From an uncultured Spirochaetales bacterium (GTDB taxonomy: Bacteria; Myxococcota_A; UBA9160; SMWR01): a DNA stretch of 64,000 nucleotides. The translations under genes were made by a program, and so were the position numbers. Shown here piece after piece: positions 1 to 22,417 of this stretch (positions are counted from its first letter, which is position 1; each line of letters opens with the position of its first letter). The notes under the pieces were generated by a model. The model had not been told where the DNA came from and made no database searches. It was given only the letters and a program-made list of their open reading frames with translations. The stretch is taken from assembly GCA_964437835.1 (NCBI GenBank), contig CAYTJA010000088.1, forward strand, positions 1,357 to 65,356. The letters run 5' to 3'.

Positions 1-2
1 GC

Positions 3-659
3 TGCTCCGAAGAGCTCGCGGCCGCGCCGGCGCAGCGCGGCGGCCCGATGAAGTACATCGACGACGCGGTGCGCGAATCCGGCGGCGCTCAGCTCGGCCG
101 CATCGAGTACTTCCAGCACAGCCACGCCGGGTTGCGCGCGTTCACGCATTCCGAGCTCGCGCTCGGGCTGGTCGAGCAGCTCTTCGGCGAGCCGGCGCTG
201 CTGTTCAAGGACAAGGTCAACTACAAGCTGCCGGGCGGCGCGCCCTTCGAGCCCCACCAGGACATCCAGGCGGGCTGGGGCAAGTACTGCGGCACCCACC
301 TCACGCTGGTCGCGCACCTCGACGCCGCGACGCCCGAGAACGGCTGCCTCGAGGTCGCGCGCGGCGCGCCGCGCCAGCAGCTGCTGGGCGAGAGCTGGCG
401 CCCGCTCGAGGCCGGCGGGCTGCGAGGTCTCGAATTCGTGCCCTGCCCGGCCGAGCCCGGCGAGCTGCTCTGCTTCGACTCGTACGTCCCGCACCGCTCG
501 GCGTCGAACCGCAGCGCGAGCCCGCGGCGGGTGCTCTATCTCACCTACAATCCACGCTCGCAAGGCGATCACTACGAGCGCTACTTCGCCGACAAGCGGG
601 CGGCCTATCCGCCCGACGCCGAGCGAGAGCCGGGCCGAACCTATCGCTATCGGGTGTAG
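3..659 (+). CDS. Fe(II)/2-oxoglutarate dioxygenase, phytanoyl-CoA dioxygenase (PhyH)-like; 5' end cut by window edge
   Basis: The frame is open from the window edge through the listed ATG at 48, so the gene probably starts upstream. It has an H-x-D iron ligand element (HQD) and a distal His (SYVPHRS) with PhyH-like spacing, and GC3-rich codons. The stop lies 4 nt before the next start. Confidence 0.7.
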   Translation, partial: CSEELAAAPAQRGGPMKYIDDAVRESGGAQLGRIEYFQHSHAGLRAFTHSELALGLVEQLFGEPALLFKDKVNYKLPGGAPFEPHQDIQAGWGKYCGTHLTLVAHLDAATPENGCLEVARGAPRQQLLGESWRPLEAGGLRGLEFVPCPAEPGELLCFDSYVPHRSASNRSASPRRVLYLTYNPRSQGDHYERYFADKRAAYPPDAEREPGRTYRYRV

Positions 660-663
660 CGCG

Positions 664-2316
664 ATGCCGCAATCACAGGACTACGAGCGCGGCAGCGCGG
701 GTCGCGTGCAGGGCGCGACGGCCGCCGGGCGGCTGCGCGCGCTGCTCGCGTCCGCGCAGCCCGAGTACCTGCTCGAGGCGCACAACGCGCTCTCCGCGAA
801 GATCGCCGAAGAGGCCGGCATGGCCGGCATCTGGGCCAGCTCGCTCACGCTCTCGGCCTCCTTCGGCCTGCGCGACAACAGCGAGCTCACGATGACGCAG
901 GCGCTCGAAGTGCTCGAGGCGATGACGGCGCGCGTCGAGATCCCGATCCTCTTCGACGGCGACACCGGCTACGGGCAGTTCAGCCATTTCCAGCATCTCG
1001 TGTACAAGCTCGAATCGAGATCGGTGGCCGGCGTCTGCATCGAGGATAAGCGCTTCCCGAAGACGAACTCCTTCCTGCGCTCCGAGGAGCAGGAGCTCGT
1101 CAGTGTCGACGAGTTCTGCGGCAAGCTGCGCGCGGGCGCCGACGCGCGCCGCGATGCGGACTTCGTGCTCGTCGCGCGGACCGAAGCCCTGATCACGGGG
1201 CTCCCGCTCGCAGAGGCGCTCTCTCGCGCCGAACGCTATGCCGAGGCCGGGGCCGACGCGATCCTCGTCCACTCGAAGGCGTCGACCTTCGCGCCGCTGC
1301 AGGAGTTCATGGCGAGCTGGAGCGGCAGGGTTCCGGTGGTCTGCGTTCCGACCACCTACTACGGGACGCCCCCCGAGAGCTTCGCGCGCGCGGGCATCTC
1401 GCTGGTGATCTGGGCCAATCACATGATGCGGGCCGGCGTCGCAGCGATGCAGCGCGTGGCCGCGCGCTTGGCCGCCGCGCAGAGCGCCCGCGAAGTCGAA
1501 GACGAAATTGCACCGGTCGCGGAGCTGTTCCGGCTCCAGGACGAGCCTGGCCTCGCTGCCAGCGAGCAGCGCTATGCGGCCGCGCCGCCGCAGCGCGCGG
1601 TGATCCTCGCGGCGTCGCGCGGCGAAGGCCTGGACGAGCTCACGGCGCTGCGCCCGAAGTGCATGATCCCGATCGCCGGGCTCTCGCCGCTCGAGCGCCT
1701 GGTGCAGCACCTGCGCGCCGAGGGCGTGCGCGAGATCTGTGCGGTGCGCGGGTATCGGCCGGCGGCGGTCGAGCTTCCGGGCGTGCGCGGCATCGACAAT
1801 CCGCGCTGGCAGGAGACCGGGGAGATCGGCTCGCTGGCCGTCGCACTTGGCGAGCTCAGCGGCGAGGTCGTGATCGCCTACGGCGACGTGATCTTCAAGC
1901 GCTACGTGCTGCACGAGCTGCTCGCCTGCGACGCTCCGCTCGCGATCGTGGTCGACGCGTCTCGCTCCTTCGTCTCGCATAAGCAGCGGGTCGACCGCGC
2001 GGCGGTCTCGGGGCGGCCGGAGGCGACCTTCGACGAGCACGCGTATCAACTCCTCGACATCGGCCCCGAGCTCTCGGACGCGCAGGCCGACGGCCAGTGG
2101 ATCGGCCTGCTGCGCAGCCGGGGCAGCGGCACCCGAGCGCTCGCCGACGCGCTCCTGCGCCTGCTCGCACGCCCCGGGGGCGAGCGTTCCGACATGGCGT
2201 CGCTGCTGCGCGAGCTGCTCTCCTGCGGCGCGCAGATCCGCGTGCTCTACATCCACGGGGACTGGGTCGACATCAACAGCCTCGCCGACGTCGCGGCCGG
2301 GAACCTCGCGTCGTGA
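664..2316 (+). CDS. pepM: Phosphoenolpyruvate mutase fused to a C-terminal nucleotidyltransferase (PntC-like) domain
   Basis: The N-terminal ~300 aa have an ICL/PEP-mutase fold with the PEP-mutase-diagnostic EDKxxxxxNS motif (EDKRFPKTNS, nt 1042-1071). From about nt 1594 there is a MobA/GlmU-like NTP-transferase domain (AVILAASRGEGL...KCMIPIAG). It is one uninterrupted 550-aa ORF. Confidence 0.9.
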   Translation: MPQSQDYERGSAGRVQGATAAGRLRALLASAQPEYLLEAHNALSAKIAEEAGMAGIWASSLTLSASFGLRDNSELTMTQALEVLEAMTARVEIPILFDGDTGYGQFSHFQHLVYKLESRSVAGVCIEDKRFPKTNSFLRSEEQELVSVDEFCGKLRAGADARRDADFVLVARTEALITGLPLAEALSRAERYAEAGADAILVHSKASTFAPLQEFMASWSGRVPVVCVPTTYYGTPPESFARAGISLVIWANHMMRAGVAAMQRVAARLAAAQSAREVEDEIAPVAELFRLQDEPGLAASEQRYAAAPPQRAVILAASRGEGLDELTALRPKCMIPIAGLSPLERLVQHLRAEGVREICAVRGYRPAAVELPGVRGIDNPRWQETGEIGSLAVALGELSGEVVIAYGDVIFKRYVLHELLACDAPLAIVVDASRSFVSHKQRVDRAAVSGRPEATFDEHAYQLLDIGPELSDAQADGQWIGLLRSRGSGTRALADALLRLLARPGGERSDMASLLRELLSCGAQIRVLYIHGDWVDINSLADVAAGNLAS

Positions 2317-3101
2317 CGCGGCCCGGGGAGCCGTCGCGCGCAGAGGCCGCGGGGCCGCTGCGGGAAGCGGTGCTGCTCGCGGCGGGCGTCGGCTCGCGCC
2401 TCGGCACGCTGGCCGGAGTACTGCCGAAGGGGCTGATCGAGGTCGGCGGCGAGAGCCTCGTCGGCCGCTCGCTGCGGCTGCTGCGCGAGCGCGGGGTCAC
2501 GCGCTGCGTGCTCGTGACGGGCTACCGCGCGGAAGCCTATCGGGAGGCCTTCGGCTCGCTGCCGGGGGTCGAGTTCGCGCACAATCCGGACTACGCGCAG
2601 ACCGGCACGATGGCCTCGCTCGCGTGCGCGCTCGCACGCGTCGACGGGCCCTGCCTGCTGCTCGAGAGCGATCTGTATTACGAGGCGCGCGCGCTCGACG
2701 CGCTGCTCGCGTTCCCGCACGCCGATGCGATCCTCGCCTCGCAGGCGACCGGCGCCGGCGACGAAGTCTTCCTCGAGGCGAAGGACGGCCTGGTGGTGAG
2801 GCTCTCGAAGCAGCGCGACGCGATCGGCGAAGTCGCGGGCGAGCTCGTGGGCCTGTCACGGATCTCTCACGCACTGGGCCGGCGGCTGCTCGAGCTGAAC
2901 CGCGAACGGTGCCTCGCCTCGGGCCACGACCGCCTCAGCTACGACACCGACCTGCTCGACGCCGTGGCGCGGGAGCGAGAGATCTGGCTGCTCCGCGTTC
3001 CGGATCTGCTCTGGAGCGAGCTCGACGACGCGCGTCACTGGCAGCGGCTGCAGCGGGAAATCGCTCCGGCCATTGCGGCACGCGAGCGCGGGACGCGCTG
3101 A
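2313..3101 (+). CDS. Stand-alone nucleotidyltransferase (LicC/GlmU-like, alcohol- or sugar-phosphate cytidylyl/nucleotidyltransferase)
   Basis: The GTG at 2313 overlaps the upstream stop (GTGA). It carries the N-terminal nucleotide-binding signature LLAAGVGSRLG...LPKGLIEVGG. The ORF-track start at 2097 lies inside the previous gene and is rejected. Confidence 0.8.
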   Translation: MTRPGEPSRAEAAGPLREAVLLAAGVGSRLGTLAGVLPKGLIEVGGESLVGRSLRLLRERGVTRCVLVTGYRAEAYREAFGSLPGVEFAHNPDYAQTGTMASLACALARVDGPCLLLESDLYYEARALDALLAFPHADAILASQATGAGDEVFLEAKDGLVVRLSKQRDAIGEVAGELVGLSRISHALGRRLLELNRERCLASGHDRLSYDTDLLDAVAREREIWLLRVPDLLWSELDDARHWQRLQREIAPAIAARERGTR

Positions 3102-3117
3102 CCCCAGCCGAGACGCG

Positions 3118-4002
3118 ATGATCTTCCAGCTGCTGCTCGGCATCGCGCTGCTGTTCGCGCTCGGGGCGCTCTTCATCGGCGCTGCCCAGCTCACCGGCCG
3201 CATGCGGGGGTCTCGGGTCTGGAAGGCCTATGCCACCGAATTCGCGACCGTCGCGGTGGTCGTCTTGCCGGCCTGGCAGGGCGGGTTCTGGCTCTGCACG
3301 GCGCTGCTGCTGCTGGCGCTCTGCTGTGCGCGCGAGCTCTATGCGGTGCTCGCTCTCAGTGGAGATCGACCCGCGACGGCCGCCGGGCTCGCGCTGAACG
3401 CGCTCGCGGTGGGGCTCGGAGTCTCAGCGCCGATGGGTTTGGCCCCCGCACTCGCGGGGGTCGGCCTCGCGTTCGGCGTTCTCCGGTTGCCGCGGCTCTG
3501 GGCTCGGGCCCCCGTGCGCCGCGTCGGGAGCACGCTGCTCGGAGCGCTCTACCCAGGGCTCTGCGTCGGCTGTCTCGCTGCGCTTGCCCTACGTGAGGGT
3601 GGTTTCGGCTACGCGCTGTTTGCATTCGCGCTGGTAGAGATCAACGACTGCGTCGCCTTTCTGGTCGGCTCGAGCATCGGTCGGCGACAGCTGTTCCCAA
3701 ATCTGTCACCAAAGAAGACCCTCGCAGGAAGCGTCGCTGGTGCAGCTGCGGCTCTTATCGCTGCGAACATGTTCTCATTTCTTGTTCCGCAGCTCTCGGG
3801 CCCCGCTCGCTTCGGGGCCGGGCTGCTGCTGGCGGTCGGCGGACCTGCGGGGGACCTGCTCGCCTCCGCATTCAAGCGGCGGGCAGGGGTGAAGGATTTT
3901 GGAAACAGCGTTCCAGTCGCAGGAGGAATTCTCGACGTTTACGACTCATTCATTCTTGTTTCGCCGTTGCTCTACCTCTACCTTGGCGCGCTGAACGTGT
4001 AG
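3118..4002 (+). CDS. CdsA-like polytopic membrane enzyme (CTP_transf_1 / phosphatidate cytidylyltransferase family) with divergent signature
   Basis: Multiple hydrophobic segments. The C-terminal SAFKRRAGVKDFGNSVPVAGGILDVYDS resembles the CdsA signature (S-x-h-K-R-x4-K-D ... P-G-H-G-G-x2-D-R-x-D) but has HGG->AGG and DR->DV. The ATG at 3118 is the first ATG after the upstream stop, so the start is uncertain. Confidence 0.65.
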   Translation: MIFQLLLGIALLFALGALFIGAAQLTGRMRGSRVWKAYATEFATVAVVVLPAWQGGFWLCTALLLLALCCARELYAVLALSGDRPATAAGLALNALAVGLGVSAPMGLAPALAGVGLAFGVLRLPRLWARAPVRRVGSTLLGALYPGLCVGCLAALALREGGFGYALFAFALVEINDCVAFLVGSSIGRRQLFPNLSPKKTLAGSVAGAAAALIAANMFSFLVPQLSGPARFGAGLLLAVGGPAGDLLASAFKRRAGVKDFGNSVPVAGGILDVYDSFILVSPLLYLYLGALNV

Positions 4003-4028
4003 CCGGCCCCCTAGGAGATCGGATCCGC

Positions 4029-5597
4029 GTGCAATACATCCTTGCCCACGACCTCGGTACCTCGAGCAACAAGGCAGTTCTCACCACGGATCGCGGGGAG
4101 ATCGTCGCCGCGACCCAGGTAGCGTATCCGCTGATTTCGCCGCGGCCCGAGATCGCCGAACAGGATCCCGAGCACTGGTGGGAGGCGGTCGCGCGGGCGT
4201 CGCGCGACGTCATCGCGCAGGCGGGCATCGCTCCCGAAGACGTCGCTGCGCTCTGCTTCGCCGGCCAGATGCAGTGCACGCTGCCGGTCGACCGCGAAGG
4301 CCAGCCGCTGATGAACGCGATGATCTGGCTCGATTCGCGGGCGCAGCGGCAATCGCGAGAGATCACGCGCGGCTGGCCGAAGATCGAGGGCTACGGTGCC
4401 ATGCGGCTGTGGCGCTGGATCCGGCTCACGAATGGCGTGCCGACGCTCTCGGGCAAGGACCCGGTCGCGAAGATGCTCTGGCTGCGCGAGCAGCGACCCG
4501 ATCTGTGGCGGCGCGCTCACAAGCTGCTCGATGCGAAAGATTTCCTGCTCTACCGCTGCGCGGGGCGCTTCGTGACGTCCTGGGATTGCGGCAACACGAG
4601 CTGGCTGATGGATACGCGTCCGGGCCGGATCGGCTGGTCGGAGCCGTTGCTGCGGATGCTCGGCATCGACGTCGAGCGCCTGCCGACACTCGTCCCCGGA
4701 ACTGCACAGGTAGGTCCGCTGCTGCCGGCGGCGGCCACTGCGCTCGGAATCCCCGCGGGCGTCCCGGTCATCGCCGGCGCGGGTGACGTCGCGTCGATGG
4801 CGGTCGGCACCGGCACCGTGCGGGATGGCGCGGTGCACCTCGGAATCGGCACCAGCGCCTGGCTCGCAGCGCACGTCGATCATCGCACGCGCGATCTGCG
4901 CTCCTACATCGCTTCGATCTGCAGCGCCCATCCGGACCGCCAGCTGCTCGTCGCGCACCAGGAGACGGGAGGTGCCTGCATCGAGTGGCTGCGGCGCTCG
5001 CTCGGGCAGGCGATCAATTCCGGCCAGGGTCCGGCGACCTACAAGGACCTCGATGCAGTCGCCGAGCGTTATGAGCCGGGCGCCGGTGGCGTGCTCTTCT
5101 TGCCATGGCTGGCCGGCGAGTACGCGCCGGTCGACGACCCCTGGCTGCGCGGGGGCTTCGTGAACCTGGCACTCCGCCACGACGCAGGTCACATGGTTCG
5201 GGCCGTCTTCGAGGGGGTCGCGCTGAATGCCCGCTGGGCACTCGGCAAGCTCGAGCGCTTGCTCGGCGGTCCCGCGCGCTGCCTGCGCTTCGCCGGCGGC
5301 GGAGCCTCGAGCGAGCCCTGGTGCCAGATTCTCGCGGACGTCTGCGGGCGGGAGGTCGTGCAGTTCGATCGGCCGCAGTTTGCGGCCGCGCGCGGCGCGG
5401 CGCTGATCGCCGCGCACGCGCTCGGCAGGGTGCCGGATTTCGCGGAGATCGAGGAGCTCGTGCCCGGGCGCGCGCGCTACACCCCGCGCGCCGAGCTTCG
5501 CGAGCTCTACGACGAGCGCTTCGCGCTCTTCCTCGATTTCTACCGCCGCAATCGCAGCTTCTTCGAGCGCGCGAACGCGAGCCCCACGCCGGCGTCG

Positions 5598-5603
<6 letters not shown>
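4029..5603 (+). CDS. FGGY-family carbohydrate/polyol kinase (xylulokinase/glycerol-kinase-like)
   Basis: N-terminal ILAHDLGTSSNKAVL (actin-fold ATPase phosphate-1 motif), FGGY-typical length (524 aa) and a C-terminal GGGASSEPWCQILADV motif. An AGGAG SD lies 11 nt upstream of the GTG start. Confidence 0.85.
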
Positions 5604-6325
<722 letters not shown>

Positions 6326-6326
<1 letters not shown>

Positions 6327-7474
6327 CAGAAGAGCTCCGCGGGGTCGAGCAGCGCGAGCTTGCGCAGCGCGAAGATGCCGGCGGCGCTGCACATCCCGAA
6401 CGAGAGCACTGCGACGCCGAAGAGCGAGCTCCACGCGAAGTGCACCGGCAGCCCGGTCCACGCGCCGAGGCCCTGCTGCAGTGCGAGGCCCAGCAGGGCT
6501 GCCGGGAGCGAGCCCGCGAGCGATAGCAGCAGCGCCTGCGTCATCACGACGCGCGAGAGGAAGGGCCGGCCATAGCCCATCGCGACGAGCGTCGCGTACT
6601 CGCGCATGTGGTCGAGCACGTCGGTGTAGAGGATCTGGTAGCAGACGACGGTACCCGCGGCGAAGCCGAGCACGACGCCGACGAGCAGCACGATGCTGAT
6701 CGGCGTGCCGCGCTTCCAATACTCGAGGTCGCGCTGCATCAGGCCTGCGTGCGTGTAGACCTCGACGTCGTTCGGGAGCGCTGCGCGCAGCGCAGGCAGC
6801 AGCTCGTGAGCGCGAATGCCCGGCGCGACCCGCAACGCCGCGAGCTCGATCTGCTGCGCTGCCAAGGGGTCGAGCGCGAGCGCGGTCGCCTCGCCGACGA
6901 TCAGGTTGCCGTCGGCCTCGAAATCGCTGCCGAGCGAAAAGGTGCCGACGATCTCGATCGGGTGGCGCGCGAGCTGGCCGGGCCCCGCGACGAGCGGGCC
7001 GTAGCTGTTGCGCGAGCGCGCATCGATCAGGCCCGTCCAGGGCCGACGCAGCGCCTCCGCGGCCGCGGCGATGGCCGGCTCGCGGAAGATCGGATCCGGC
7101 GGCGCGAAGCCGATCACGCGGATCGGCCGCTCGGAGCCCGCGAGCGGATTCTTCCAGAACACGAGATCCAGCCAGAGTGGATAGGCCGCGGCAACGCCGG
7201 GCACCGACAGCGCCTGGTAGAGGCGCTCGCGCGGCATCGCGTTGCGCGCGAGGAAGGGGCGCTTCTCGCCGCTCATGACGATCAGATCCGCGTCGATCTG
7301 GCGCAGCAGCTCGAGCGAGCTGTCGAGCAGCGCGGCGCGAAACACCAGCTGCGCGATCATCAGCAACAGCGCGGCGCAGACCCCCGCGGCGCAGGCCGCG
7401 AGCCGCACGCGATCGTGGCGCAGCAGCGCGAGCGCCAGCCGGACCGCGACCCAGCGCTCGAACGCGGTGCGCAT
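6326..7474 (-). CDS. devC: ABC exporter permease, DevC family (FtsX/MacB-fold), copy 2
   Basis: An N-terminal TM helix, a large periplasmic region, then 3 C-terminal TM helices ending in ...DPAELF. It is paralogous to the upstream gene. The ATG at 7474 overlaps the upstream stop (ATGA). Confidence 0.85.
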
Positions 7475-8652
7475 CAGTAGAGCTCCGCCGGATCCGCGCG
7501 GCGCAACCGGCCCAGGCAGAGCAGCGCCGCCGCGACGGACATCGCGAGCGTCAGCGCGCCGACGCCCGCGACGAGGCCCGCGCTCATCGAGATCGGCAGC
7601 AGCGTCCAGTGCTGCACCAGCGCGAAGCTCCCGAGGGCCAGGCACAGCGCGGGGACGAAGCCCAGCGCGACCAGGATGCCCGCCTCGGCCAGCACGAAGC
7701 GCCGCAGCCTGGCGTGGCTGTAGCCCATGGCCTTGAGCGTCGCGAAGAGCGGCAGCTGATTGCGGATGTCGGTCGCGAGCACCTGGTGCAGCACGACGAG
7801 CCCAACCGCGAAGCCCGCGAACGCGCCCATGCCGAAGATGTTGCCGACGGCCGTGTTCTCGACCCAGTGGCGGATCTGGAGCCGGGAGAGCTCGTCGCGC
7901 GTCAACACCAGCAGGTCCGGCGGCAGCAGCCGGGTCAGCTCCGCGGCGGCCGCGCGCGGCTCCGCACCGGGGCGAAGTTTGATCAGGCCGAGCTGCGCGC
8001 GGTCCAGGGGATGGCCCGCGAAATAGCGCGAGAAGGCGTCGTCCGAGAGCAACAGCGAGCCGTCGCCGAGGAAGCCGACACCGAGCGAATAGCGGCCCAC
8101 GACGACCGCGGCCTGCTCGCGCAGCTCGACGCGCCCCGCTGGATCGAGGGGGCCGCAGACGCTCTGCGTCCGCGTATCGAGCAGCAGCGCGTCGGAGGCC
8201 GCGAGTGCGGGCAGCTGCTCCGCCAGACCCGGAACGCGCAGCGGCGCTCCGGCGTCGAGCGGAAAACCGAGCGCGAACAATTTGCAGTGCTCGCCGGAAA
8301 CCGGATCGCGCCAGCGCGCATAGCGCAGGTACAGCGGGCGCGCGCTCGCGACTGCGGGCACGGCCAGCGCCTGGAACAGCCGCGCGCGGTCGATCTCGTC
8401 GGCCTCGGAGAGATGCACGAAGCGCGGCGAGACGAGCACGAGATCGGCGTCGAGGTGCGACGGAATTGCGGTCGCGGTGCGTACGACCGCGCGGTAGAAG
8501 CCGAGCTGCAGGAAGATCACCAGGATCGAGAACGCGATTCCGGCCGCGGCGACCGCGCTGCGCAGCTTCTGGTGCGCGACCAGGCGCCACGCGAAGGCGA
8601 CGCGTCGCGGCACCCGCGCGGGCAGGGACGCGCTGCGGGAAGCGTCCGTCAC
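7474..8652 (-). CDS. devC: ABC exporter permease, DevC family (FtsX/MacB-fold), copy 1
   Basis: AFAWRLVAHQKLRSAVAAAGIAFSILVIFLQLGF N-terminus typical of DevC; the C-terminus ends in ...DPAELY. The GTG at 8652 overlaps the DevB stop (GTGA). It is in frame with the listed ORF, and the longer listed form is rejected. Confidence 0.8.
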   Translation of the reverse strand: MTDASRSASLPARVPRRVAFAWRLVAHQKLRSAVAAAGIAFSILVIFLQLGFYRAVVRTATAIPSHLDADLVLVSPRFVHLSEADEIDRARLFQALAVPAVASARPLYLRYARWRDPVSGEHCKLFALGFPLDAGAPLRVPGLAEQLPALAASDALLLDTRTQSVCGPLDPAGRVELREQAAVVVGRYSLGVGFLGDGSLLLSDDAFSRYFAGHPLDRAQLGLIKLRPGAEPRAAAAELTRLLPPDLLVLTRDELSRLQIRHWVENTAVGNIFGMGAFAGFAVGLVVLHQVLATDIRNQLPLFATLKAMGYSHARLRRFVLAEAGILVALGFVPALCLALGSFALVQHWTLLPISMSAGLVAGVGALTLAMSVAAALLCLGRLRRADPAELY

Positions 8653-9641
8653 TCTCCGACGAAGAGGCGCACCTGGCCCTCGAGGTTCGTGAAGCGCGCG
8701 GCGCGCTCGCTCTGCGTCAGGCGCACGCGCACTTCGAAGACGCGCAGTCCGCGCGGAGCGCTCGGATCCTCCCCGAAGATGCGGTTGTCGTAGATCGCGG
8801 CGCCGATGTCTTCGACGACGCCCTCGACGCCCTCGGGCAGGGCCGCACTCGTGAACAGCGCGCGCTGGCCGACCCTGACGTGGCGGATGTCGTTCGCGTG
8901 CACTTCGGCCACGGCCATCATCTGGCGCGTCTCCCCGAGATGCACCAACGGCTGGGCCCCCGCGCGCTCGCCAGGCCGCAGCGAGAGCTTCAGGACTTCG
9001 GCGTCGAGCGGGGCGTAGATGTGCGCCTGCGCGAGCAGCACCTCGGCGCGCTTTACAGTGTTGTCTGCGCTGCGGCGCTCGAGCTCGAGGCTGCCCTCGA
9101 GGCGCGAGAGCGAGGCGCGGGCTTCGGCCAGCGACTCGGAGGCGACACGCGCGCGCAGCTCGGCGTCGCGGAATTCCTGGCCGGTCATGAAGCCCTGTAC
9201 CGACAAGCCGCGCTGGCGTTCGACCTCGGCCATCGCGTGTGCGCGCTCGGCCTCGCCGCTGCGCACGCGCGCGCGCTGGGCCTGGAGGTCGAAGGGCAAC
9301 AGCTCGACGCGCTCGCGCGCGAGGCGCGCGGCCTCGAGCTCGGCCTCGCGCGCAGCCGCGGATGCGAAGGTCAGCAGCAGCTGACCCCGCTGCACGCGCT
9401 CGCCCTCGCGCACGTGGAGCTCGGAGACGACGTCGTCGATCGGCGCGCCGAGGCGCACGACGCGGCTCGCGGGCTCGAGCCGCGCGAGCGCGACGACGCT
9501 CTCGCGCGCCGGCTCCGCAGTGGGTGCAGCCACCGCCTCCGAGCGGCCGCGCTGCGACGGCAGCCACGCGGCGAAGAGCGCCGCCGCGCAACCGGCGCTG
9601 ATGAAGCATGCGACGCGCGAAGGTTTCATGCGATTGGGCAT
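8649..9641 (-). CDS. devB: HlyD-type membrane fusion protein, DevB family
   Basis: Signal/anchor segment, a barrel-sandwich hybrid region (VSELHVREGERVQRGQLL), a long coiled-coil hairpin, then a beta-barrel domain. It lies immediately upstream of the DevC/DevA genes. Alternative start ATG 9629. Confidence 0.85.
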   Translation of the reverse strand: MPNRMKPSRVACFISAGCAAALFAAWLPSQRGRSEAVAAPTAEPARESVVALARLEPASRVVRLGAPIDDVVSELHVREGERVQRGQLLLTFASAAAREAELEAARLARERVELLPFDLQAQRARVRSGEAERAHAMAEVERQRGLSVQGFMTGQEFRDAELRARVASESLAEARASLSRLEGSLELERRSADNTVKRAEVLLAQAHIYAPLDAEVLKLSLRPGERAGAQPLVHLGETRQMMAVAEVHANDIRHVRVGQRALFTSAALPEGVEGVVEDIGAAIYDNRIFGEDPSAPRGLRVFEVRVRLTQSERAARFTNLEGQVRLFVGE

Positions 9642-9642
9642 G

Positions 9643-10380
9643 CTACCGCGCCGCGAGATCGCGGAGCAGGTCGAGCTCCACGTACGCGAAGACCCCGCAC
9701 ACGTAGACGGCCATCGCGAGCAGCAGCCAATCCATCCCGCCGAAGGCTCCGGCGGCGGCGATGCCGAAGATGTAGAGGTTCTCGAGGCCGGAGAGCGCGA
9801 TCAGCGCGAGCCGTTTCAGCCCGAGCGGCCCGGCCGGCTGTACCGCGTGCGGCTGCGCGCGCGCGAAATGCTGCTCGGCGTGGTCGCGGCTCAGGCGGTT
9901 CAGCAGCACCAGCAGCGGCAGCGCGGTCGCGATCTCGAGCGCGTACTCGCCGAAGAGTCCGCCGCCGCGCTGCTCGGCGAGGATGCCGACCGAAACGAAG
10001 ACCAGGATCCAGTAGAGCTGGCCGATCACGAGATCGAGCATCTGACCGTAGGCGCTGCTGCGGCCCGTCGCACGCGCGAGGTTGCCGTCCACGCAGTCGA
10101 GGATCTGGCAGGCGAAGCCCACGCCGAATACGAGCCAGTGCGCTCGCTCGCCGCCGAAGACGGCCGCGAGCGGCAGGCAGAGCGAGAGCGCGAGGGAGAG
10201 CCACGTCACGCCGGCGGGTGTGAAGCCCGCTCGCGCGAAGAGCGGGGTGACCCAGAACGAGAGCGGCCGGAACAGCAGCAGCGCGGGCAGCTCTCCCGAG
10301 AGCTCTTCCCAGCGTTTGTCGGCACCGTAGGAGCGGCGCACGTCTGCGACCGTCAGGCGCTTCGGTCCGGCGGCTCCCAT
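9643..10380 (-). CDS. CDP-alcohol phosphatidyltransferase family protein (divergent motif)
   Basis: Polytopic membrane protein carrying DCVDGNLARATGRSSAYGQMLDLVIG (nt 10021-10098). This matches D-x2-D-G-x2-A-R-x8-G-x3-D-x3-D except that the final Asp is Gly. ATG 10380 was chosen. The stop is 1 nt from the devB start. Confidence 0.75.
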   Translation of the reverse strand: MGAAGPKRLTVADVRRSYGADKRWEELSGELPALLLFRPLSFWVTPLFARAGFTPAGVTWLSLALSLCLPLAAVFGGERAHWLVFGVGFACQILDCVDGNLARATGRSSAYGQMLDLVIGQLYWILVFVSVGILAEQRGGGLFGEYALEIATALPLLVLLNRLSRDHAEQHFARAQPHAVQPAGPLGLKRLALIALSGLENLYIFGIAAAGAFGGMDWLLLAMAVYVCGVFAYVELDLLRDLAAR

Positions 10381-10686
10381 CAGAGCGGCGTGTGCTGGCG
10401 CGCGGGCATCGGGGCCGAAGGGTAGCCAGCGGGTGGGCCGCGTCGCACAGGAGCCTGAGCTCCGCTGCGCCGGGCAACGCGATCGTGGACGCCGGCACCC
10501 ACCAGCCGCGACAGCCCGGCTGGATGCCGTCTCCGAACGTCGACTGCGCCGAGGCTCGGTCTCCCGCGCCGCAGCGCTGGCGGAAGACCCGCGGGTATGG
10601 AGCCGCTCCATGGGCACGCCCGGCGCAAACGCGAGCCGCATTCGGGTCGGATACACCGGTGTTACACTTTCGGCCGAGGTCGCTCG

Positions 10687-10908
10687 ATGCCTACTGCGAA
10701 GAAGCGTATCAACATCACCGTCGATGACGAGGTGTACGAAGCTCTCGAGCGCTTGTCTGCGGAGCGCAATCAGCCGGTCGCCGGCGTGAGCCTCAGCTTG
10801 ATCGAACAGGCCCTCGAATACCAGGAAGACGTCTACTTCTCGCGAGTCGCTGACGAGCGATTGAATCGGAAGCAGAAACGCGTGCCCCACCCGAAGGCCT
10901 GGGGGTGA
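10687..10908 (+). CDS. Ribbon-helix-helix (CopG/RelB-type) antitoxin
   Basis: 73 aa. The KRINITVDDEVYEALERLS N-terminus is typical of an RHH beta-strand plus helix. It overlaps the toxin start. The palindrome ACACCGGTGT (10653-10662) 25 nt upstream is a candidate operator. GC3 is lower than in neighbouring genes. Confidence 0.75.
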   Translation: MPTAKKRINITVDDEVYEALERLSAERNQPVAGVSLSLIEQALEYQEDVYFSRVADERLNRKQKRVPHPKAWG

Positions 10909-11168
10909 TGTATCGCACCGAGAACCTCGCGACCGTGGCCGAGGAGGATATCCCGAAGCTCACCAAGTCCGTCCGCAACCAGGTCAAGGCCGCGATAGAG
11001 AAGAGGCTGGGCGCGTATCCCATCGAGTTCGGTAAGCCGCTTCGATACAGCTTGAAAGGCGCTCGACGTCTGCGTGTCGGAGACTGGCGAGTGATCTACA
11101 AGATCGAACGTTCTGGCGTCGTTCTCGTGCTGAAGATCGGGCATCGACGGGAAATCTACGAGGGGTGA
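10905..11168 (+). CDS. relE: RelE/StbE (RelE/ParE superfamily) type II toxin
   Basis: 87 aa. The C-terminal RLRVGDWRVIYKIE...VVLVLKIGHRREIY is typical of RelE/StbE. Its start (GTG 10905 or ATG 10908) overlaps the antitoxin stop. Confidence 0.8.
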   Translation: MMYRTENLATVAEEDIPKLTKSVRNQVKAAIEKRLGAYPIEFGKPLRYSLKGARRLRVGDWRVIYKIERSGVVLVLKIGHRREIYEG

Positions 11169-11274
11169 GTGCCTAGGACGAATCGTGCGACCATCCTAGG
11201 TCTGACCACGGGGAGACGGACGACTCCAGCGGGCATATCCACCGGCGTGCGACGCACTGTTCGACGCACGTGAG

Positions 11275-12372: not shown

Positions 12373-15195
12373 CTACGCGCGAGAGGGCTCCAGCACGCCG
12401 CGCAGCGCGCGCCCGGTGTGGCTCGCCTCGCAGCGCGCGACCTCTTCCGGCGTGCCCTCGACGACGATCTGCCCGCCACCTGCGCCGCCTTCGGGGCCGA
12501 GGTCGATCACCCAGTCTGCGCTCTTGATCACGTCCGGGTGGTGCTCGATCACGAGCACGCTGTTGCCGCCGTCGACGAGGCGGGTGAGCACTTCGAGCAG
12601 CTTCGCGACGTCGCCGAAGTGCAGCCCCGTGGTCGGCTCGTCGAGCAGGTAGAGGGTGCGGCCGGTCGCGCGGCGCGAGAGCTCGCGCGCGAGCTTGATG
12701 CGCTGCGCCTCGCCGCCCGAGAGCGTCGTCGCGGGCTGGCCGAGGTGCAGATAGTCGAGGCCGACCTCGTGCAGCGTGCGCAGCGGGCGCGCGATCTGCG
12801 GCACGTTCTCGAGCAGCGTCAGCGCGGCTTCGACCGGGAGCTCGAGCAGCTCTGCGATGCTCAGGCCCTTGTAGCGGATCTCGAGGGTCTCGCGGTTGTA
12901 GCGCCGGCCGCCACAGGCTTCGCAGCGCACGTAGAGATCCGGCAGGAAGTGCATCTCGATGCGCAGGATGCCGTCGCCCTGGCAGGACTCACAGCGCCCG
13001 CCCTTCAGGTTGAAGGAAAATCGGCCCGGCGTGTAGCCGCGCACGCGCGCCTCGGGCACCTGGCTCATCAGCTCGCGAATCGCGTCGAAGACGCCGGTGT
13101 AGGTCGCGGCGTTGCTGCGCGGCGTGCGGCCGATCGGCGACTGGTCGACGTCGATCACCTTGTCGATCTGCTCGAGGCCCGAGAGGCGCGCGAAGCGGCC
13201 CGGCGGCTCGGCCGCGCCGTGCAGGCGCGCGGCGAGCGCGCGGTAGAGTGTGTCGTTGATCAGCGTCGACTTGCCCGAGCCCGAGACGCCCGTGACGACG
13301 GTCAAGACGCCGAGCGGCACGCGCAGCGTGATGTCCTTCAGATTGTGCTCGCTGCAGCCGCTGAGCGTGAGCGCACGCGGGCCGGGCTTGCGGCGCCGCG
13401 GCGGCACCGGAATGCGCTTGCGGCCCGAGAGATAGGCGCCCGTCGGCGAGGCCTCGTTCGCGGAGATCTCCGCCGGCGTGCCTTCGGCGATTACGGCGCC
13501 GCCGTGCACGCCGGCGCCGGGGCCCATGTCGATCACCCAGTCCGCGGAGCGGATCGTCTCCTCGTCGTGCTCGACCACGAGCAGCGAATTTCCGGCGTCG
13601 CGCAGGCGAAACAGGCTCTCGAGCAGGCGCCGGTTGTCGCGCGGGTGCAGGCCGATCGAGGGCTCGTCGAGGATGTAGAGCACACCCATCAGGCTGGAGC
13701 CGACCTGCGTCGCGAGGCGGATGCGCTGGCCCTCGCCGCCCGAGAGCGTGGCGGCCGCGCGGTCGAGCGTGAGGTAGCCGAGGCCGACGTCCGCGAGGAA
13801 GCGCAGCCGGTTCTGGATCTCGGTCTGGATGCGCTGCGCGATCGCCTGCCGCGCGGGCGGGAGTGCCAGCGTCTCGAAGAAGCGCCGCGCGTCGCCTACC
13901 GAGAGCGCCGAGAGCTCCGCGATCGAGTGCCCTGCGATCTTCACGCCGAGCGCTTCGACGCGCAGCCGCGAGCCGCTGCAGCTCGGGCAGGGCGAGGCAC
14001 TGCGGAAGCGCGCGAGGCCATCCGCGGCGTCGTCCGCCGCGGCTTCGTCGCGGCGCGCGAGCTCGGCCATCACGCCGTCGAAGCGCCGCGCGAGCGGCTG
14101 ATCGCTGCCCGGGACCGGCAGCGGAATCAGCTCCTCGGCGCCGAACAGGATCGCGTCGCGCGCGAGCTTCGGGAGCTCGCTCCAGGGAGTGTCGAGATCG
14201 ACACCGAAATGCGTCGCGAGTGCCTCGAGCAGCATCGCGTAATAGCGCGGCGCGCTGCGTCCGCTCCACGGCGCGATCGCCTTGCGCAGCGGCAGCGAGG
14301 GATCCGACACCACGCGCCCGGCGTCGAGGGTCTCGGCGATGCCCAGGCCGCCGCAGGCCGGGCACGCGCCGTGCGGGTTGTTGAACGAGAAGCTGCGCGG
14401 CTCGATCTCGGGGTAGGAGATTCCGCACTTCGAGCAGGCCGCGCGCTCGGAGAGCTGCCACTCCTGCTGGCCCGGCCCGACGTCGATGCAGATCCTGCCG
14501 TCCGCGAGCCCGACCGCCGTCTCGATCGACTCGGCCACGCGCGAGCGCGCGGAGTCCTTGACCGCGATGCGGTCGACCAGCAGCTCGATCGTGTGCTTGC
14601 GGCGCTTGTCGAGCTGGATCTCCTGGCCGAGCTCGACCAATGCGCCATCGACGCGCGCGCGCACGAAGCCCTGGCGCTGCCAGGCCTCGAGCTCGCGCCG
14701 GTACTCGCCCTTGCGGTCGCGCACGGCGGGCGCGAAGACCTGCACGCGCGTGCCCTCGGGCAGCGCGAGCACGCGGTCGCTCATCTGCTGGATCGTCTGG
14801 CTCTCGATCTCGCGCCCGCACTTCCAGCAGTGCGGCAGACCCGCGCGCGCGAAGAGCAGGCGCAGGTAGTCGTGGATCTCGGTGATCGTGCCGACGGTCG
14901 AGCGCGGGTTGCGGCCGACCGTCTTCTGCTCGATCGCGATCGCCGGCGAGAGCCCGTCGATCGAATCGCAGTCCGGCTTGTTCAGCTGCTCGAGGAACTG
15001 CCGCGCGTAGGCCGAGAGCGATTCGACGTAGCGGCGCTGTCCCTCGGCGTAGAGCGTGTCGAAGGCCAGCGAGGATTTGCCCGAGCCCGAGGGCCCGGTG
15101 ACGACGACGAGCTGGTCGCGCGGGATGCGCAGCTCGAGGTTGCGCAGGTTGTGCTCGCGGGCGCCGCGGACGTGGATGCAGGACGCACCGCTCAC
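12373..15195 (-). CDS. uvrA: Excinuclease ABC subunit A
   Basis: Canonical N-terminus [55 protein letters not shown], two ABC modules and zinc-finger Cys clusters. The GTG at 15195 is preceded by GAAGG-N7. The in-frame upstream repeat region contains no ATG/GTG/TTG codon in this frame. Confidence 0.95.
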
Positions 15196-15197
15196 TT

Positions 15198-15401
15198 GTT
15201 GACCTTCGCTCGCCTGCGGCTCGCTGCGCGCGGCAGGGCCGCTTGCGGGTTGACCTTCGCGCGATTGCGGCTCGCTGCGCGTGACGGGGCGGCTTGCGTG
15301 TTGAGCTTCGCGCGCCTGTGGCTCGCTGTGCGCAGCGGAGCCGCTTGCGTGATGAGCCTCGTATGCCTGCGGCTCACTGTGAGCGGCATGACCGCTCGAG
15401 G
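15198..15401 (-). repeat. 4 tandem copies of a 51-bp GC-rich leader repeat (family shared with loci at 35.1, 50.4 and 62.5 kb)
   Basis: Unit starts at 15198, 15249, 15300 and 15351 (period exactly 51). The repeat fills the SurA-like/uvrA spacer. The uvrA-proximal unit ends in GAAGGTCAACAA followed directly by the GTG start. Confidence 0.95.
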
Positions 15402-15418
15402 GGGAAGGGTTGCAGGCT

Positions 15419-16516
15419 TCAGCGCGGGGTGCGCTCCGCGGGCTCCGCGAGCGCGAAGCTGCCGCGGCGCTCGATGAAGGTGTTGCTGCGCAACTTCTCG
15501 AGCCAGATCTGATACTCCTGCACCTCGAGCACGCCGCGGATTTCGCGCTCGAGCATCGGGCGCGCGACTTCGTAGCTGACTGGCGCGTATTCCTGCCGGT
15601 CGACGAGCTGGAGCAGGGTGCAGGCGCCCGGGAGCTCGACCACGGGCGAGAGATCGCCGGGCGAGAGCCCAGCAATGACCTCGCTCATCCAAATCGCGAG
15701 CTCGGCCGCGAGGATCCAGCCGAGGTCGCCGCCGCGCTCGGGCGCGACGCTGCTCAGCTCCGCGGCGACGGCCTCGAAGCGCTCGCCGGCGGCGACGCGC
15801 GCGGCCGCGGTCGCGACGAGCGCACAGGCGTCGTCCTTGCTGCGGCCCGGCCCGTCGCCGTAGGGCACCAGCAGCTGACGCAGGTGCACCTGGTCGCCGC
15901 CGGTCGGCTGATTCCCGTAGCGCTCGTCGAAGAGGCGCTTCACGGCGTCCTCCTCGACCCGGATCTTCGGGCCGACCACGGCCGAGACGATGCGGCTGCG
16001 CTCGATCTCGCGCCGCAGCTGCGCGCGGTAGTCGGCGAGCGAAAGCCCCTGCTCCTCGACGTTCGCGATCAGCTCCTCGCGGCTGCGGTTGTTCTCCTTC
16101 GCGATCGCGTCGATCGCCTGGTCGACGTCGACATCGCTGGCCGCGAGCTCGGCCTGGGCGACGACGCCCTCGAGCATGCGCCATTCGATCATGCGCTCGA
16201 GCGCCTCGGAGCGGATCGCGGCGAGGTCGTCATCGCCCGCGCCGCGCTGGCGCAGGTCGGCTTCCATGGGCGCGACCATGCCCATCACCTCCGACACCAG
16301 CACGACCTTGGTGCCGACCTGGGCGGCGATGCCGTCGATCAGCTCTTCCGCGGCGCGCGCTGTGCCGGGCGCGAGTGCCGAGGCGATGCCAACGCAGAGC
16401 CCCGCCGTGGTGCACGCGGCGGCGCTGGCCACACGCGCCGAAGACCGGAAGGTCCTGCCGCGCGCGGAGCACGGGGGCGGGAGCGCGCGCTGCGGGCGCC
16501 GCGGGAAGCGCATCAT
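15419..16516 (-). CDS. SurA-like periplasmic chaperone / parvulin-type peptidyl-prolyl isomerase
   Basis: Signal peptide, a SurA N-terminal-like domain (IDGIAAQVGTKVVLVSEV...), then a PPIC-type rotamase segment (VHLRQLLV...GGDLGWI...). Confidence 0.8.
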   Translation of the reverse strand: MMRFPRRPQRALPPPCSARGRTFRSSARVASAAACTTAGLCVGIASALAPGTARAAEELIDGIAAQVGTKVVLVSEVMGMVAPMEADLRQRGAGDDDLAAIRSEALERMIEWRMLEGVVAQAELAASDVDVDQAIDAIAKENNRSREELIANVEEQGLSLADYRAQLRREIERSRIVSAVVGPKIRVEEDAVKRLFDERYGNQPTGGDQVHLRQLLVPYGDGPGRSKDDACALVATAAARVAAGERFEAVAAELSSVAPERGGDLGWILAAELAIWMSEVIAGLSPGDLSPVVELPGACTLLQLVDRQEYAPVSYEVARPMLEREIRGVLEVQEYQIWLEKLRSNTFIERRGSFALAEPAERTPR

Positions 16517-18140: not shown

Positions 18141-18214
18141 GTCTGCCCTCCTGATCGGGGGAACCCGGGCGGCTGCGTCACGCGACGCCTGGCCGCGCTG
18201 CGACGCGCGTTGCG

Positions 18215-20653: not shown

Positions 20654-21099
20654 GGAGCCCTCGCGGGGTCGGGGGTCGCGGCGGGTCTGAACAAGGGCAG
20701 GCTCAGCTCACTCGAGAGGTCTTCGAAGACCACGCAGACGGGCATCCCGATGCGAATGGAGTCGTTGGGGCAATCGATCAGATTCGAGACGATCCGGATG
20801 CCCTCTTCGAGCTCGACGAGAACGACGTTGTAGGGGACCTGATCGGCCCAGAACGGATGCAGCAGCTGGTGCACGATGGCGTAGCTGTAGATCGTGCCGC
20901 GCCCGGAAGCGGGCGCCCATTCGAATTCCAACGCATGACACTCGGGGCACATGGGCCTCGGGTCGTGGCGATAGGCCCTGCACTCGAGACACCTCTGGAG
21001 CACCAGGCGGTGATTCCTGGCGCCCTCCCAATAGCCTTGGGTGTCGGGAGTGGGATCCGGCCGCGGCCTGGTTGCCGCGGGTTCATTCGAAGCGGTCAT
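20650..21099 (-). CDS. DUF35 Zn-ribbon/OB-fold protein (thiolase partner, BbsA-like)
   Basis: CxxC...CxxC rubredoxin-like ribbon (CLECRAYRHDPRPMCPEC) followed by an OB-fold segment (GTIYSYAIVH). It lies directly downstream of an SCP-x-type thiolase, the usual pairing. Confidence 0.85.
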   Translation of the reverse strand: MTASNEPAATRPRPDPTPDTQGYWEGARNHRLVLQRCLECRAYRHDPRPMCPECHALEFEWAPASGRGTIYSYAIVHQLLHPFWADQVPYNVVLVELEEGIRIVSNLIDCPNDSIRIGMPVCVVFEDLSSELSLPLFRPAATPDPARAP

Positions 21100-21126
21100 G
21101 CAGAGGACCTCGCGTGGAAGGACGCT

Positions 21127-22320: not shown

Positions 22321-22417
22321 GGTCCCTCCTCGAGCGGTCGTCGTGCCGCTGCCGCGGCGCGCCGCAGCGTCGCGCGCAGCGGTGGTGGAGCAACCCCCCG
22401 CGCGCGTGGGTGGAAGT

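Follow-up and report, generated by a model that had tools for sequence, protein, structure and literature searches.

In this work, we focused on a gene cluster at the start of a 64,000-nucleotide stretch of contig CAYTJA010000088.1 (the whole stretch is hereafter called the window), from an uncultured bacterium that is probably a diderm of the Myxococcota type. The cluster combines a phosphoenolpyruvate (PEP) mutase (PepM) fused to a nucleotidyltransferase (NTP) domain, genes of lipid building and a DevBCA-like ATP-binding cassette (ABC) pump, in two converging operons. Judged by their conservation in relatives, these operons are one unit, chance juxtaposition being excluded. On balance, we consider it probable from the sequences that this unit builds an envelope lipid or glycolipid bearing a phosphonate, which a pump of the MacB/LolCDE type then exports.

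Gene content and organization of the locus

The window has about 70 % G+C; reading frames were chosen by third-position GC content (GC3) and then checked against profile libraries (Pfam and NCBIfam). All ten intact genes that a preliminary description of this DNA had placed between nt 3 and 10380 were recovered, with the domains given to them there (Table 1).

Table 1. Genes of the cluster within the window
Feature	Position (nt)	Strand	Supporting match or remark
PhyH-family Fe(II)/2-oxoglutarate (2OG) dioxygenase, PhnY*-like	3..659	+	Pfam PhyH E 2e-16; 5' end beyond window edge
PEP mutase (residues ~24-294) fused to divergent NTP_transf_3 domain (residues ~310-550)	664..2316	+	PEP_mutase E 3.5e-60; TIGR02320
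Stand-alone PntC-type cytidylyltransferase (NTP2), NTP_transf_3	2313..3101	+	PDB 6PD1
CdsA-like polytopic CTP_transf_1 protein	3118..4002	+	Pfam E 9e-46
FGGY-family sugar/polyol kinase, xylulokinase-like	4029..5603	+	FGGY_N and FGGY_C
DevA-like ABC ATPase	5598..6326	-	TIGR02982 best model, 271.6 bits
DevC-like FtsX/MacB-type permease, paralogue 2	6326..7474	-	TIGR01185, 269.2 bits
DevC-like FtsX/MacB-type permease, paralogue 1	7474..8652	-	TIGR01185, 245.5 bits; FtsX and MacB_PCD
DevB-family membrane-fusion adaptor	8649..9641	-	TIGR02971, 168.7 bits
CDP-alcohol phosphotransferase-family (CDP-OH) protein, incomplete signature	9643..10380	-	Pfam CDP-OH_P_transf, 35.2 bits

The GTGA overlaps described at the PepM/NTP2 and DevB/DevC1 junctions and the 1-nt gap between the CDP-OH gene and the devB start are all seen in the sequence. 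Two further junctions, which flank DevC paralogue 2 on both sides and had been given as ATGA, are actually TGATG with a 1-nt overlap. From these junction sequences, the CDP-OH, devB, devC, devC and devA genes form a translationally coupled minus-strand operon. Where the FGGY and DevA genes converge, their stop codons share 6 nt (window 5598-5603, the palindrome CTATAG); no terminator-like hairpin was found between them in a terminator scan, and Rfam and promoter/terminator scans of the locus gave no matches. Compared with the orthologues of the related locus L082, all eleven genes examined were intact, with nonsynonymous to synonymous rate ratios (dN/dS) of 0.26-0.56.

The plus-strand operon begins outside the window. 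An identical Logan contig (L001), which reaches 1.3 kb further upstream, gives the full PhyH gene (251 aa), preceded by a GT4 glycosyltransferase gene. The start of the cluster was read from L082 and L083, i.e. GNAT (Eis-like), a 207-aa CDP-OH transferase, GT4, PhyH, PepM-NTP, NTP2, CdsA-like and FGGY, converging on DevA, DevC, DevC, DevB and CDP-OH as in the window; beyond that start lie unrelated efflux genes. The conserved cluster is about 14 kb long and starts about 3 kb upstream of nt 1, most of it being held in the window.

Conservation of the cluster

Eighty genome loci with PepM-NTP fusions, among 84 fusion sources overall, were searched with the window proteins using tblastn and iterated hidden Markov models. 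Homologues of the CdsA-like, FGGY, DevB and DevC proteins were limited, among the 84 sources, to the clade of the window (L002-L005, L082 and L083), whose members are mostly metagenome-assembled genomes labelled Myxococcota or Deltaproteobacteria; L164 and L168/L172 were found later. The CDP-OH subfamily of the DevB-linked protein is more widespread (47 of the 84).

PepM-NTP, a second NTP, CdsA-like, FGGY, CDP-OH and DevBCA-like genes occur together, in varying order, in L082, L164, L003 and L004, and the same set minus PepM in L168/L172. The CDP-OH gene heads the dev operon in the window, L082, L164 and L168/L172; in L002-L004 it follows the CdsA-like gene, within the PepM operon. In L003 and L004 the FGGY gene is inverted and the DevBCA-like genes come after it, and the recovered stretch of L002 has neither FGGY nor Dev genes. 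The earlier proposal that the ten genes are one system is thus borne out: in five or more further lineages the set remains together at 40-80 % protein identity, even though it is rearranged.

L172 belongs to the lineage of L168, and its synteny with the window extends across SurA and the UvrA-like gene. Its cluster reads PIP-synthase-like CDP-OH (PIP, phosphatidylinositol-phosphate), GT4, PhyH, NTP2, GT2, CdsA-like and FGGY, converging on DevA, DevC, DevC, DevB, Stealth and a CDP-OH gene without the fourth signature aspartate (D4, see below). Within the clade, the cluster is therefore found with PepM and phosphonopyruvate decarboxylase (Ppd), with or without 2-aminoethylphosphonate (AEP) transaminase (AEPT), with PepM only (window), or with neither (L172). 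This distribution argues that the conserved core is the machinery for lipid head-group assembly and export, and that the carbon-phosphorus (C-P) supply genes are variable; these presumably come and go since they are able to sit elsewhere in the genome, and the puzzle of the missing ppd weighs less as a result.

Some neighbours in these relatives were additionally recorded. A Stealth-family gene (hexose-1-phosphoryl transferase type) stands between the CDP-OH gene and devB in L168 (10710-11681) and L172 (18415-19386), and a soluble sulfatase-family gene lies upstream in this PepM-less lineage. Directly upstream of the cluster, L172 1-5854 holds aryl-polyene-type lipid genes (KS, Ketoacyl-synt_2, Lip_A acyltransferase and a halogenase-like flavoprotein). 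In L167, a Ppd-less locus, the segment 10001-19449 encodes PepM-NTP, a DIP2-like AMP-binding enzyme, a PhyH orthologue (49 %), YjbH, a PntC orthologue (49 %) and Wza-type polysaccharide export.

PepM and the early enzymes of the pathway

The PepM domain carries the motif EDKRFPKTNS (residues 127-136, nt 1042-1071), which separates mutases from other isocitrate-lyase-family enzymes, and passes the curated PEP-mutase cutoff (TIGR02320, 335.7 bits versus 319.55). Sister models scored lower, i.e. 229.4 bits for phosphonopyruvate hydrolase (cutoff 374.4) and 125.5 for methylisocitrate lyase (cutoff 354.4), and the mutase assignment first read from the EDKxxxxxNS pattern stands. The protein is 80-83 % identical to those of L082/L083, the two loci most closely related to the window; against L082 (80 %) its dN/dS is 0.31, which indicates purifying selection.

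The preliminary description had noted that no phosphonopyruvate decarboxylase or aminotransferase lies in the window, and tblastn and Pfam detected none in the 64 kb. Searching the window by tblastn with the Ppd, AEPT and 2-Hacid_dh (VlpB-like reductase) proteins of relatives gave no match, Pfam scans of 30 further window genes returned housekeeping functions only, without Ppd or AEPT, and neither enzyme was found in L082 or L083 (tblastn, Pfam). The suggestion that both might be encoded upstream of nt 1 did not hold, as L001, L082 and L083 have there GT4, the PIP-synthase-like CDP-OH transferase and GNAT. The PepM stop overlaps the NTP2 start, leaving no space for another gene between them. 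Elsewhere in the clade, L164 and L004 have both Ppd and AEPT; Ppd is also encoded in L002, L003 and L005. About 13 % of ppm neighbourhoods are without any known early enzyme (PMC8942020), so that the state of the window is unusual, not unique. We consider that Ppd and AEPT are probably encoded elsewhere in the genome, because the AEP-contact residues of NTP2 argue that an aminophosphonate is still the substrate.

Two nucleotidyltransferases

NTP2 matches Tde1415 (Tde-PntC, PDB 6PD1; also 6PD2), a cytidylyltransferase characterised as acting on AEP, over its full length with an E value of 1.6e-35. The signature GxG(T/S)Rx4-8PK with R15 and K25 is conserved, together with K153 and E104; E196, which like E104 contacts the AEP amine in Tde-PntC, is replaced by Asp as in LicC. 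The two proteins are thus alike in their full-length alignment, in R15, K25, K153 and E104 and in an acidic position 196; they differ in that Tde-PntC is fused to AEPT whereas NTP2 stands alone, and in the Asp at position 196 of NTP2. These residues of Tde-PntC are not shared by the PepM-fused domain of the same cluster (NTP_transf_3, window 1597-2313), in which K25 is kept, Tyr stands for E104, Ala for E196 and Pro for K153, and the Arg is displaced by three positions. These divergent residues recur in L082, L164, L003, L167 and Nostoc (L060), i.e. in every lineage examined.

The AEP cytidylyltransferase activities in the literature were measured on stand-alone or AEPT-fused PntCs. The former statement that a PepM-PntC fusion makes CMP-AEP was therefore an extrapolation, the fused domain being without the AEP-contact residues. 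From these residues, the fused domain may act on a substrate other than AEP, and the stand-alone NTP2 is the better candidate for CMP-phosphonate synthesis.

The PhyH-family dioxygenase

The best NCBIfam model for the dioxygenase is the methylphosphonate hydroxylase PhnY* (NF052437), matched over its full length at 143.8 bits (E 6.6e-42), below the cutoff of 500. The HxD...H iron triad and the 2OG-binding Arg are conserved. The likeness to the PhnY* family thus consists of the PhyH fold, the iron triad and the best curated model; the differences are the score, far below that cutoff, and the catabolic role of PhnY*. Members of the orthogroup of the window protein (42-76 % identity) accompany Ppd and AEPT in L073 and L077; L167 has one in the absence of Ppd, and L172 one in the absence of PepM. 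A link of this gene specifically to Ppd-less clusters was hence not supported, and the spread of the orthogroup fits an AEP alpha-hydroxylase better than a Ppd replacement. A different, HalD-like oxygenase is found in 37 loci, none of them in the window's clade. The expected product, 1-hydroxy-AEP, is a known bacterial lipid head group, that of the Bacteriovorax stolpii sphingophosphonolipid (PMC8942020); the B. stolpii cluster belongs to another gene-cluster family than that of the window.

Putative lipid-building genes

The CdsA-like protein scores 59.5 bits against the CdsA equivalog PRK11624 (cutoff 385), despite its CTP_transf_1 match, and aligns to TmCdsA (PDB 4Q2G) in its C-terminal half only. 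A metagenome scan with patterns from its alignment proved generic to CdsA, and the sole true relative among the matches listed was L084. The kinase has both FGGY domains and scores 316.3 bits with the XylB model, under the cutoff of 380.25; its best PDB match is the E. coli xylulokinase 2ITM (E 6e-56). The upstream 207-aa CDP-OH protein has a complete signature, and its top scores are archaetidylinositol-phosphate and PIP synthases. Such synthases join CDP-diacylglycerol and an alcohol-phosphate, a chemistry which fits the CdsA-like and kinase genes of the cluster.

The DevBCA-like pump

The preliminary description had named a DevBCA-type exporter. This holds for the adaptor, which exceeds the DevB cutoff (TIGR02971, 168.7 bits versus 129), but not fully for DevA (TIGR02982, 271.6 versus 295.8) and the two DevC proteins (TIGR01185, 269.2 and 245.5 versus 290.35), for which these are the best models with scores below the cutoffs; 'DevBCA-like' is thus the accurate term. 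The DevC paralogues are about 33-35 % identical to each other, and the pair is conserved in L082, L003, L004 and L168/L172.

Likeness to the Anabaena DevBCA-HgdD exporter of heterocyst glycolipids extends from these profile scores to the FtsX and MacB periplasmic domains and the tight operon. The use of two different permease paralogues is shared with the MacAB/LolCDE type VII ABC family (compare LolC/LolE). Unlike the Anabaena system, the window has DevA and DevC below the cutoffs, its host is not a cyanobacterium, and a CDP-alcohol-transferase-family gene heads the operon. The Anabaena exporter also has an outer-membrane partner, whereas the parts of the window that were scanned yielded none; OEP proteins of L003 and L082 gave no match in the window, and an OEP gene adjoins the cluster only in L003/L004/L005. 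In the literature, no link between DevBCA and phosphonate clusters was found.

A CDP-alcohol transferase homologue without the fourth aspartate

The protein encoded beside devB belongs to the CDP-OH family (PF01066, 35.2 bits versus a cutoff of 22), and both this assignment and the linkage to devB were borne out. Its signature is incomplete. The signature of CDP-alcohol phosphotransferases (CDP-AP), D1xxD2GxxAR...GxxxD3xxxD4, has eight residues described as absolutely conserved (PMC4634129), and the DevB-linked protein departs from it, reading DCVDGNLARATGRSSAYGQMLDLVIG (nt 10021-10098) with a Gly (GGC codon, 10021-10023) in place of D4. D4 is the presumed catalytic base, and the D93N change nearly abolishes the activity of the M. 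tuberculosis PIP synthase (MtPIPS), binding being unaffected (PMC4634129, PMC6506517).

The best PDB match of the protein is cholinephosphotransferase 1 (CPT1, 8ERO, E 5.6e-4), and CEPT1 (8GYW) is also among the best. In human CEPT1, only about 15 % of the activity remains in the D158A variant, and the base is proposed to be a His beside D3 (PMC10156783); this CEPT1-type His is also absent from the DevB-linked protein. The Kennedy-type enzymes CPT1 and CEPT1 and the eukaryotic CMP-AEP:diacylglycerol route are alike in moving a CMP/CDP-activated head group to a lipid alcohol, and they supply the best solved-structure matches. They are unlike the window protein in that the similarity is weak, its D4 is Gly and the CEPT1 base His is missing.

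Gly is also found at D4 in L082, L164, L168/L172 and 11 of the 14 close homologues, two of which have in addition Glu at D3. The orthologues of L002-L004, which are not beside devB, keep Asp. The D4 change goes with devB linkage. An exhaustive search of the 'DCVDGN..AR' CDP-AP subfamily (proteins P0141-P0288) further revealed that D4 is missing in 56 of the 143 scorable representatives at 50 % identity (41 Gly, 8 Ser, 5 Thr). A neighbour-joining ordering places these D4-less representatives in four or more separate blocks; the loss is therefore recurrent and tolerated.

Two explanations for the Gly were considered and discarded. A decaying pseudogene is contradicted by a dN/dS of 0.40, by retention of the change down to 52 % identity and by the repeated D4 losses; a tie to the loss of Ppd is contradicted by L164, which has Ppd and AEPT yet Gly. 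Two roles come into question for the DevB-linked protein: a transferase of a non-canonical kind, or a pump partner that binds a CDP/CMP ligand.

Relation to the predicted Group 1 phosphonolipid family

The 'Burkholderiales_CDP-OH' family of Li & Horsman 2022 (PMC8942020) corresponds to the Group 1 phosphonolipids of Yu et al. 2013 and is predicted and uncharacterised. It comprises 318 of 882 ppm neighbourhoods, its predicted product is a 1-hydroxy-AEP lipid, and its core has seven genes, i.e. Ppm-PntC, Ppd, AEPT, a 2OG oxygenase, a second PntC and two phospholipid genes (PMC8942020). We reconstructed this core in Nostoc (L060) and Burkholderia lata (L031), with CDP-OH, HalD-like oxygenase, PntC, Ppm-PntC, Ppd and AEPT; in B. 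lata, a gene for an MprF-type LPG_synthase_TM (flippase-like) protein (L031 8693-9982) lies between the oxygenase and PntC.

The window cluster shares with this family the Ppm-NTP_transf_3 fusion, a second PntC, a 2OG oxygenase, a CDP-OH protein of the same 'D(C/H)(V/T)DG' subfamily, and the pairing of the chemistry with a membrane translocation component. It differs from it in several respects: the core Ppd and AEPT were not found in the window; the oxygenase is PhyH/PhnY*-like and non-homologous to the HalD-like one; a tripartite DevBCA-like ABC pump stands in place of the Burkholderia MprF-TM-like protein; CdsA-like, FGGY kinase, PIP-synthase-like transferase, GT4 and GNAT genes are added; and the DevB-linked CDP-OH protein is without D4. 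The preliminary description had known of no characterised pathway that combines these parts. This is right insofar as the parent family is uncharacterised, but the combination had already been published as a prediction (PMC8942020). By homology and gene content, the window cluster is best described as a lineage-specific branch of the predicted Group 1/CDP-OH family, in which the extra lipid/glycolipid genes and the DevBCA-like pump of the Myxococcota-type variant appear to be new.

Proposed function and alternative readings

A scheme was assembled in which every mechanistic step derives from homology and conserved gene linkage. PepM would produce phosphonopyruvate, and a presumed unlinked Ppd and AEPT would convert it to AEP. 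The PhnY*-like dioxygenase may hydroxylate C1 to give 1-hydroxy-AEP, and NTP2, as a stand-alone PntC, would form the CMP-phosphonate. The CdsA-like enzyme, the FGGY kinase and the PIP-synthase-like transferase are predicted to build a phosphatidyl-(polyol-phosphate) lipid, which GT4 and GNAT would decorate. A CDP-alcohol phosphotransferase-family protein would attach or hand over the phosphonyl head group, and the DevB-DevC1/DevC2-DevA pump, a mechanotransmission ABC system of the MacB/LolCDE type, would pull the finished lipid from the inner membrane for outward delivery.

The phosphonate-headed lipid and its export, already put forward in the preliminary description, are reasonable given that Burkholderia pairs the same CDP-OH subfamily with an MprF-type translocator; the absent early enzymes, the Gly at D4 and the variability of PepM detract from them. 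Several observations weigh against this reading. Neither the 64 kb nor the genes upstream in L082/L083 yielded a Ppd, AEPT, PalB-, FrbC- or VlpB-type enzyme, and Ppd adjoins PepM-NTP in 73 of the 80 genome loci (AEPT in 60), so that with both absent from the cluster the route from phosphonopyruvate is a presumed one. The L172 cluster has no PepM, Ppd or AEPT, its PhyH gene running directly into NTP2 (L172 8433-9998), which means that the core needs no in-cluster C-P synthesis and that a phosphate ester is possible in principle. The DevB-linked CDP-OH protein is without the presumed catalytic base, and the CdsA-like, DevA, DevC and FGGY proteins all score below equivalog cutoffs, which makes their substrates guesses. 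Moreover, no outer-membrane factor was found in the scanned stretches of the window, GT2, Stealth and Wzy neighbours in relatives hint at a glycan and not at a simple lipid, and none of the clusters of the parent family has a known lipid product.

The most serious of the other readings, although unlikely, is that the product is not a membrane lipid but a phosphonoglycan or lipid-anchored polymer, or else a soluble phosphodiester (DIPP synthase-like), secreted by the MacB-type pump. GT4 accompanies the cluster in all relatives, with GT2, Stealth and sulfatase-family genes in L168/L172; distant D4-less homologues, on short contigs, adjoin Wzy_C; in L167, polysaccharide export of the Wza/YjbH type is coupled to this trio of PepM-NTP, PhyH and PntC; weak matches to a bifunctional IPCT/DIPPS model come from NTP2 and from the CDP-OH protein; and most PntC clusters are glycan-tailoring according to Rice et al. 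A polymer or soluble product nevertheless accords poorly with the CdsA-like and PIP-synthase-like genes, which are lipid-biosynthetic and conserved in every member, with a closest solved CDP-OH relative that is a diacylglycerol-using cholinephosphotransferase, and with the MprF-type lipid-translocator domain of the Burkholderia relatives. The window, furthermore, contains no Wzx, Wzy or Wza gene.

It is clearly unlikely that the head group is phosphate-based (e.g. phosphoethanolamine or another amino-alcohol phosphate), with PepM as an accessory gene, recently acquired or decaying. Such a lipid would explain why the L172 cluster is complete without PepM, Ppd and AEPT and why the latter two are missing from the window, and PntC-type enzymes are close to LicC, with which NTP2 shares Asp at position 196. 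PepM, however, is intact, over its equivalog cutoff and under the purifying selection described above; the best curated match of PhyH is a phosphonate alpha-hydroxylase, which requires a C-H beside phosphorus; and, as the Ppd-containing loci L164, L003 and L004 show, the ancestral cluster made a phosphonate.

A Ppd-independent route, in which the PhnY*-like dioxygenase acts on phosphonopyruvate, or the fused NTP domain forms CMP-phosphonopyruvate, and thereby traps phosphonopyruvate irreversibly within the cluster, so that decarboxylase and transaminase would be dispensable, seems highly doubtful. Three Ppd-less lineages (window/L082/L083, L167 and L072) have PhyH by PepM-NTP, versus about 3 of the 73 Ppd loci, a weak association with a Fisher p of 0.008-0.04 that ignores phylogeny; however, PhyH orthologues (42-47 % identity) are present in the Ppd- and AEPT-containing loci L073 and L077 and in the PepM-less L172, and the 2OG-binding Arg and iron triad are ordinary. 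The fused NTP domain is without both of the Glu in contact with the AEP amine, which would suit a substrate other than an amine, but it has the same divergent residues in Ppd-containing clusters, including that of Nostoc, while the amine-contact residues are kept in NTP2, which argues for an aminophosphonate. The share of ppm neighbourhoods with no known early enzyme (about 13 %, PMC8942020) speaks in favour of such a route.

Finally, that a phosphonate cluster and an unrelated efflux pump converge by chance has a negligible probability: their opposite strands speak for it, as does the lack of a common regulatory signal in Rfam and promoter/terminator scans, but the linkage persists in the further lineages though the CDP-OH and FGGY genes shift position and strand, and the CDP-OH orthologue, in the PepM operon in L002-L004, is in the dev operon in the window, a synteny which effectively refutes this explanation.

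Flanking regions

Past nt 10380, the window contains DUF3047, UvrA-like, SurA and CoA-metabolism genes, followed by core housekeeping genes. The stretch of approximately 0.9 kb that separates the CDP-OH start codon from the divergently oriented DUF3047 gene (window 10381-11274) has no convincing GC3 coding frame and no Rfam match; the promoters of the CDP-OH operon and of DUF3047 are presumably located there. A gene for a UvrA-like paralogue (1100 aa, window 12373-15675) adjoins a SurA-like chaperone gene (15419-16516). This pair also borders the cluster in L168 (72.7 % identity), indicating a stable chromosomal site. Further on, window 16572-23599 encodes an acyl-CoA ligase, a doubled family-III CoA-transferase (812 aa), a ChsH2-like OB-fold protein, a thiolase-like protein and a second CoA-transferase, a gene run that resembles steroid/bile-acid side-chain degradation genes. 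A 512-aa open reading frame on the minus strand (window 26913-28451) has strong coding GC3 and no Pfam match.

Significance of the cluster

The most far-reaching reading combines phosphonate synthesis without Ppd, from phosphonopyruvate trapped within the cluster by the PhnY*-like dioxygenase or the fused NTP domain, with a role of the D4-less CDP-AP-like protein, translationally coupled to DevB, as a non-canonical transferase or as a cargo-loading subunit of a MacB-type lipid exporter. We regard this combination as quite improbable; if true, it would add a new early branch point to C-P biosynthesis and a new role for a large CDP-AP clade without the 'invariant' Asp (the 56 of 143 representatives noted above). 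In any case, D4-less CDP-alcohol phosphotransferase homologues are a large group, and the question that they raise for enzymology reaches far past this locus.

About one third of the catalogued bacterial ppm neighbourhoods belong to the CDP-OH family, for none of which the lipid product, the transferase activity or the transport route has been shown, and the pump described here offers a concrete candidate for the export of a phosphonolipid or phosphonoglycolipid in bacteria. The clusters with and without PepM, Ppd and AEPT constitute a natural comparative series, in which the makers of the head group can be set apart from the builders and movers of the lipid. The exporter link, this PepM/Ppd series and the D4-less CDP-AP clade are thus specific and testable leads.

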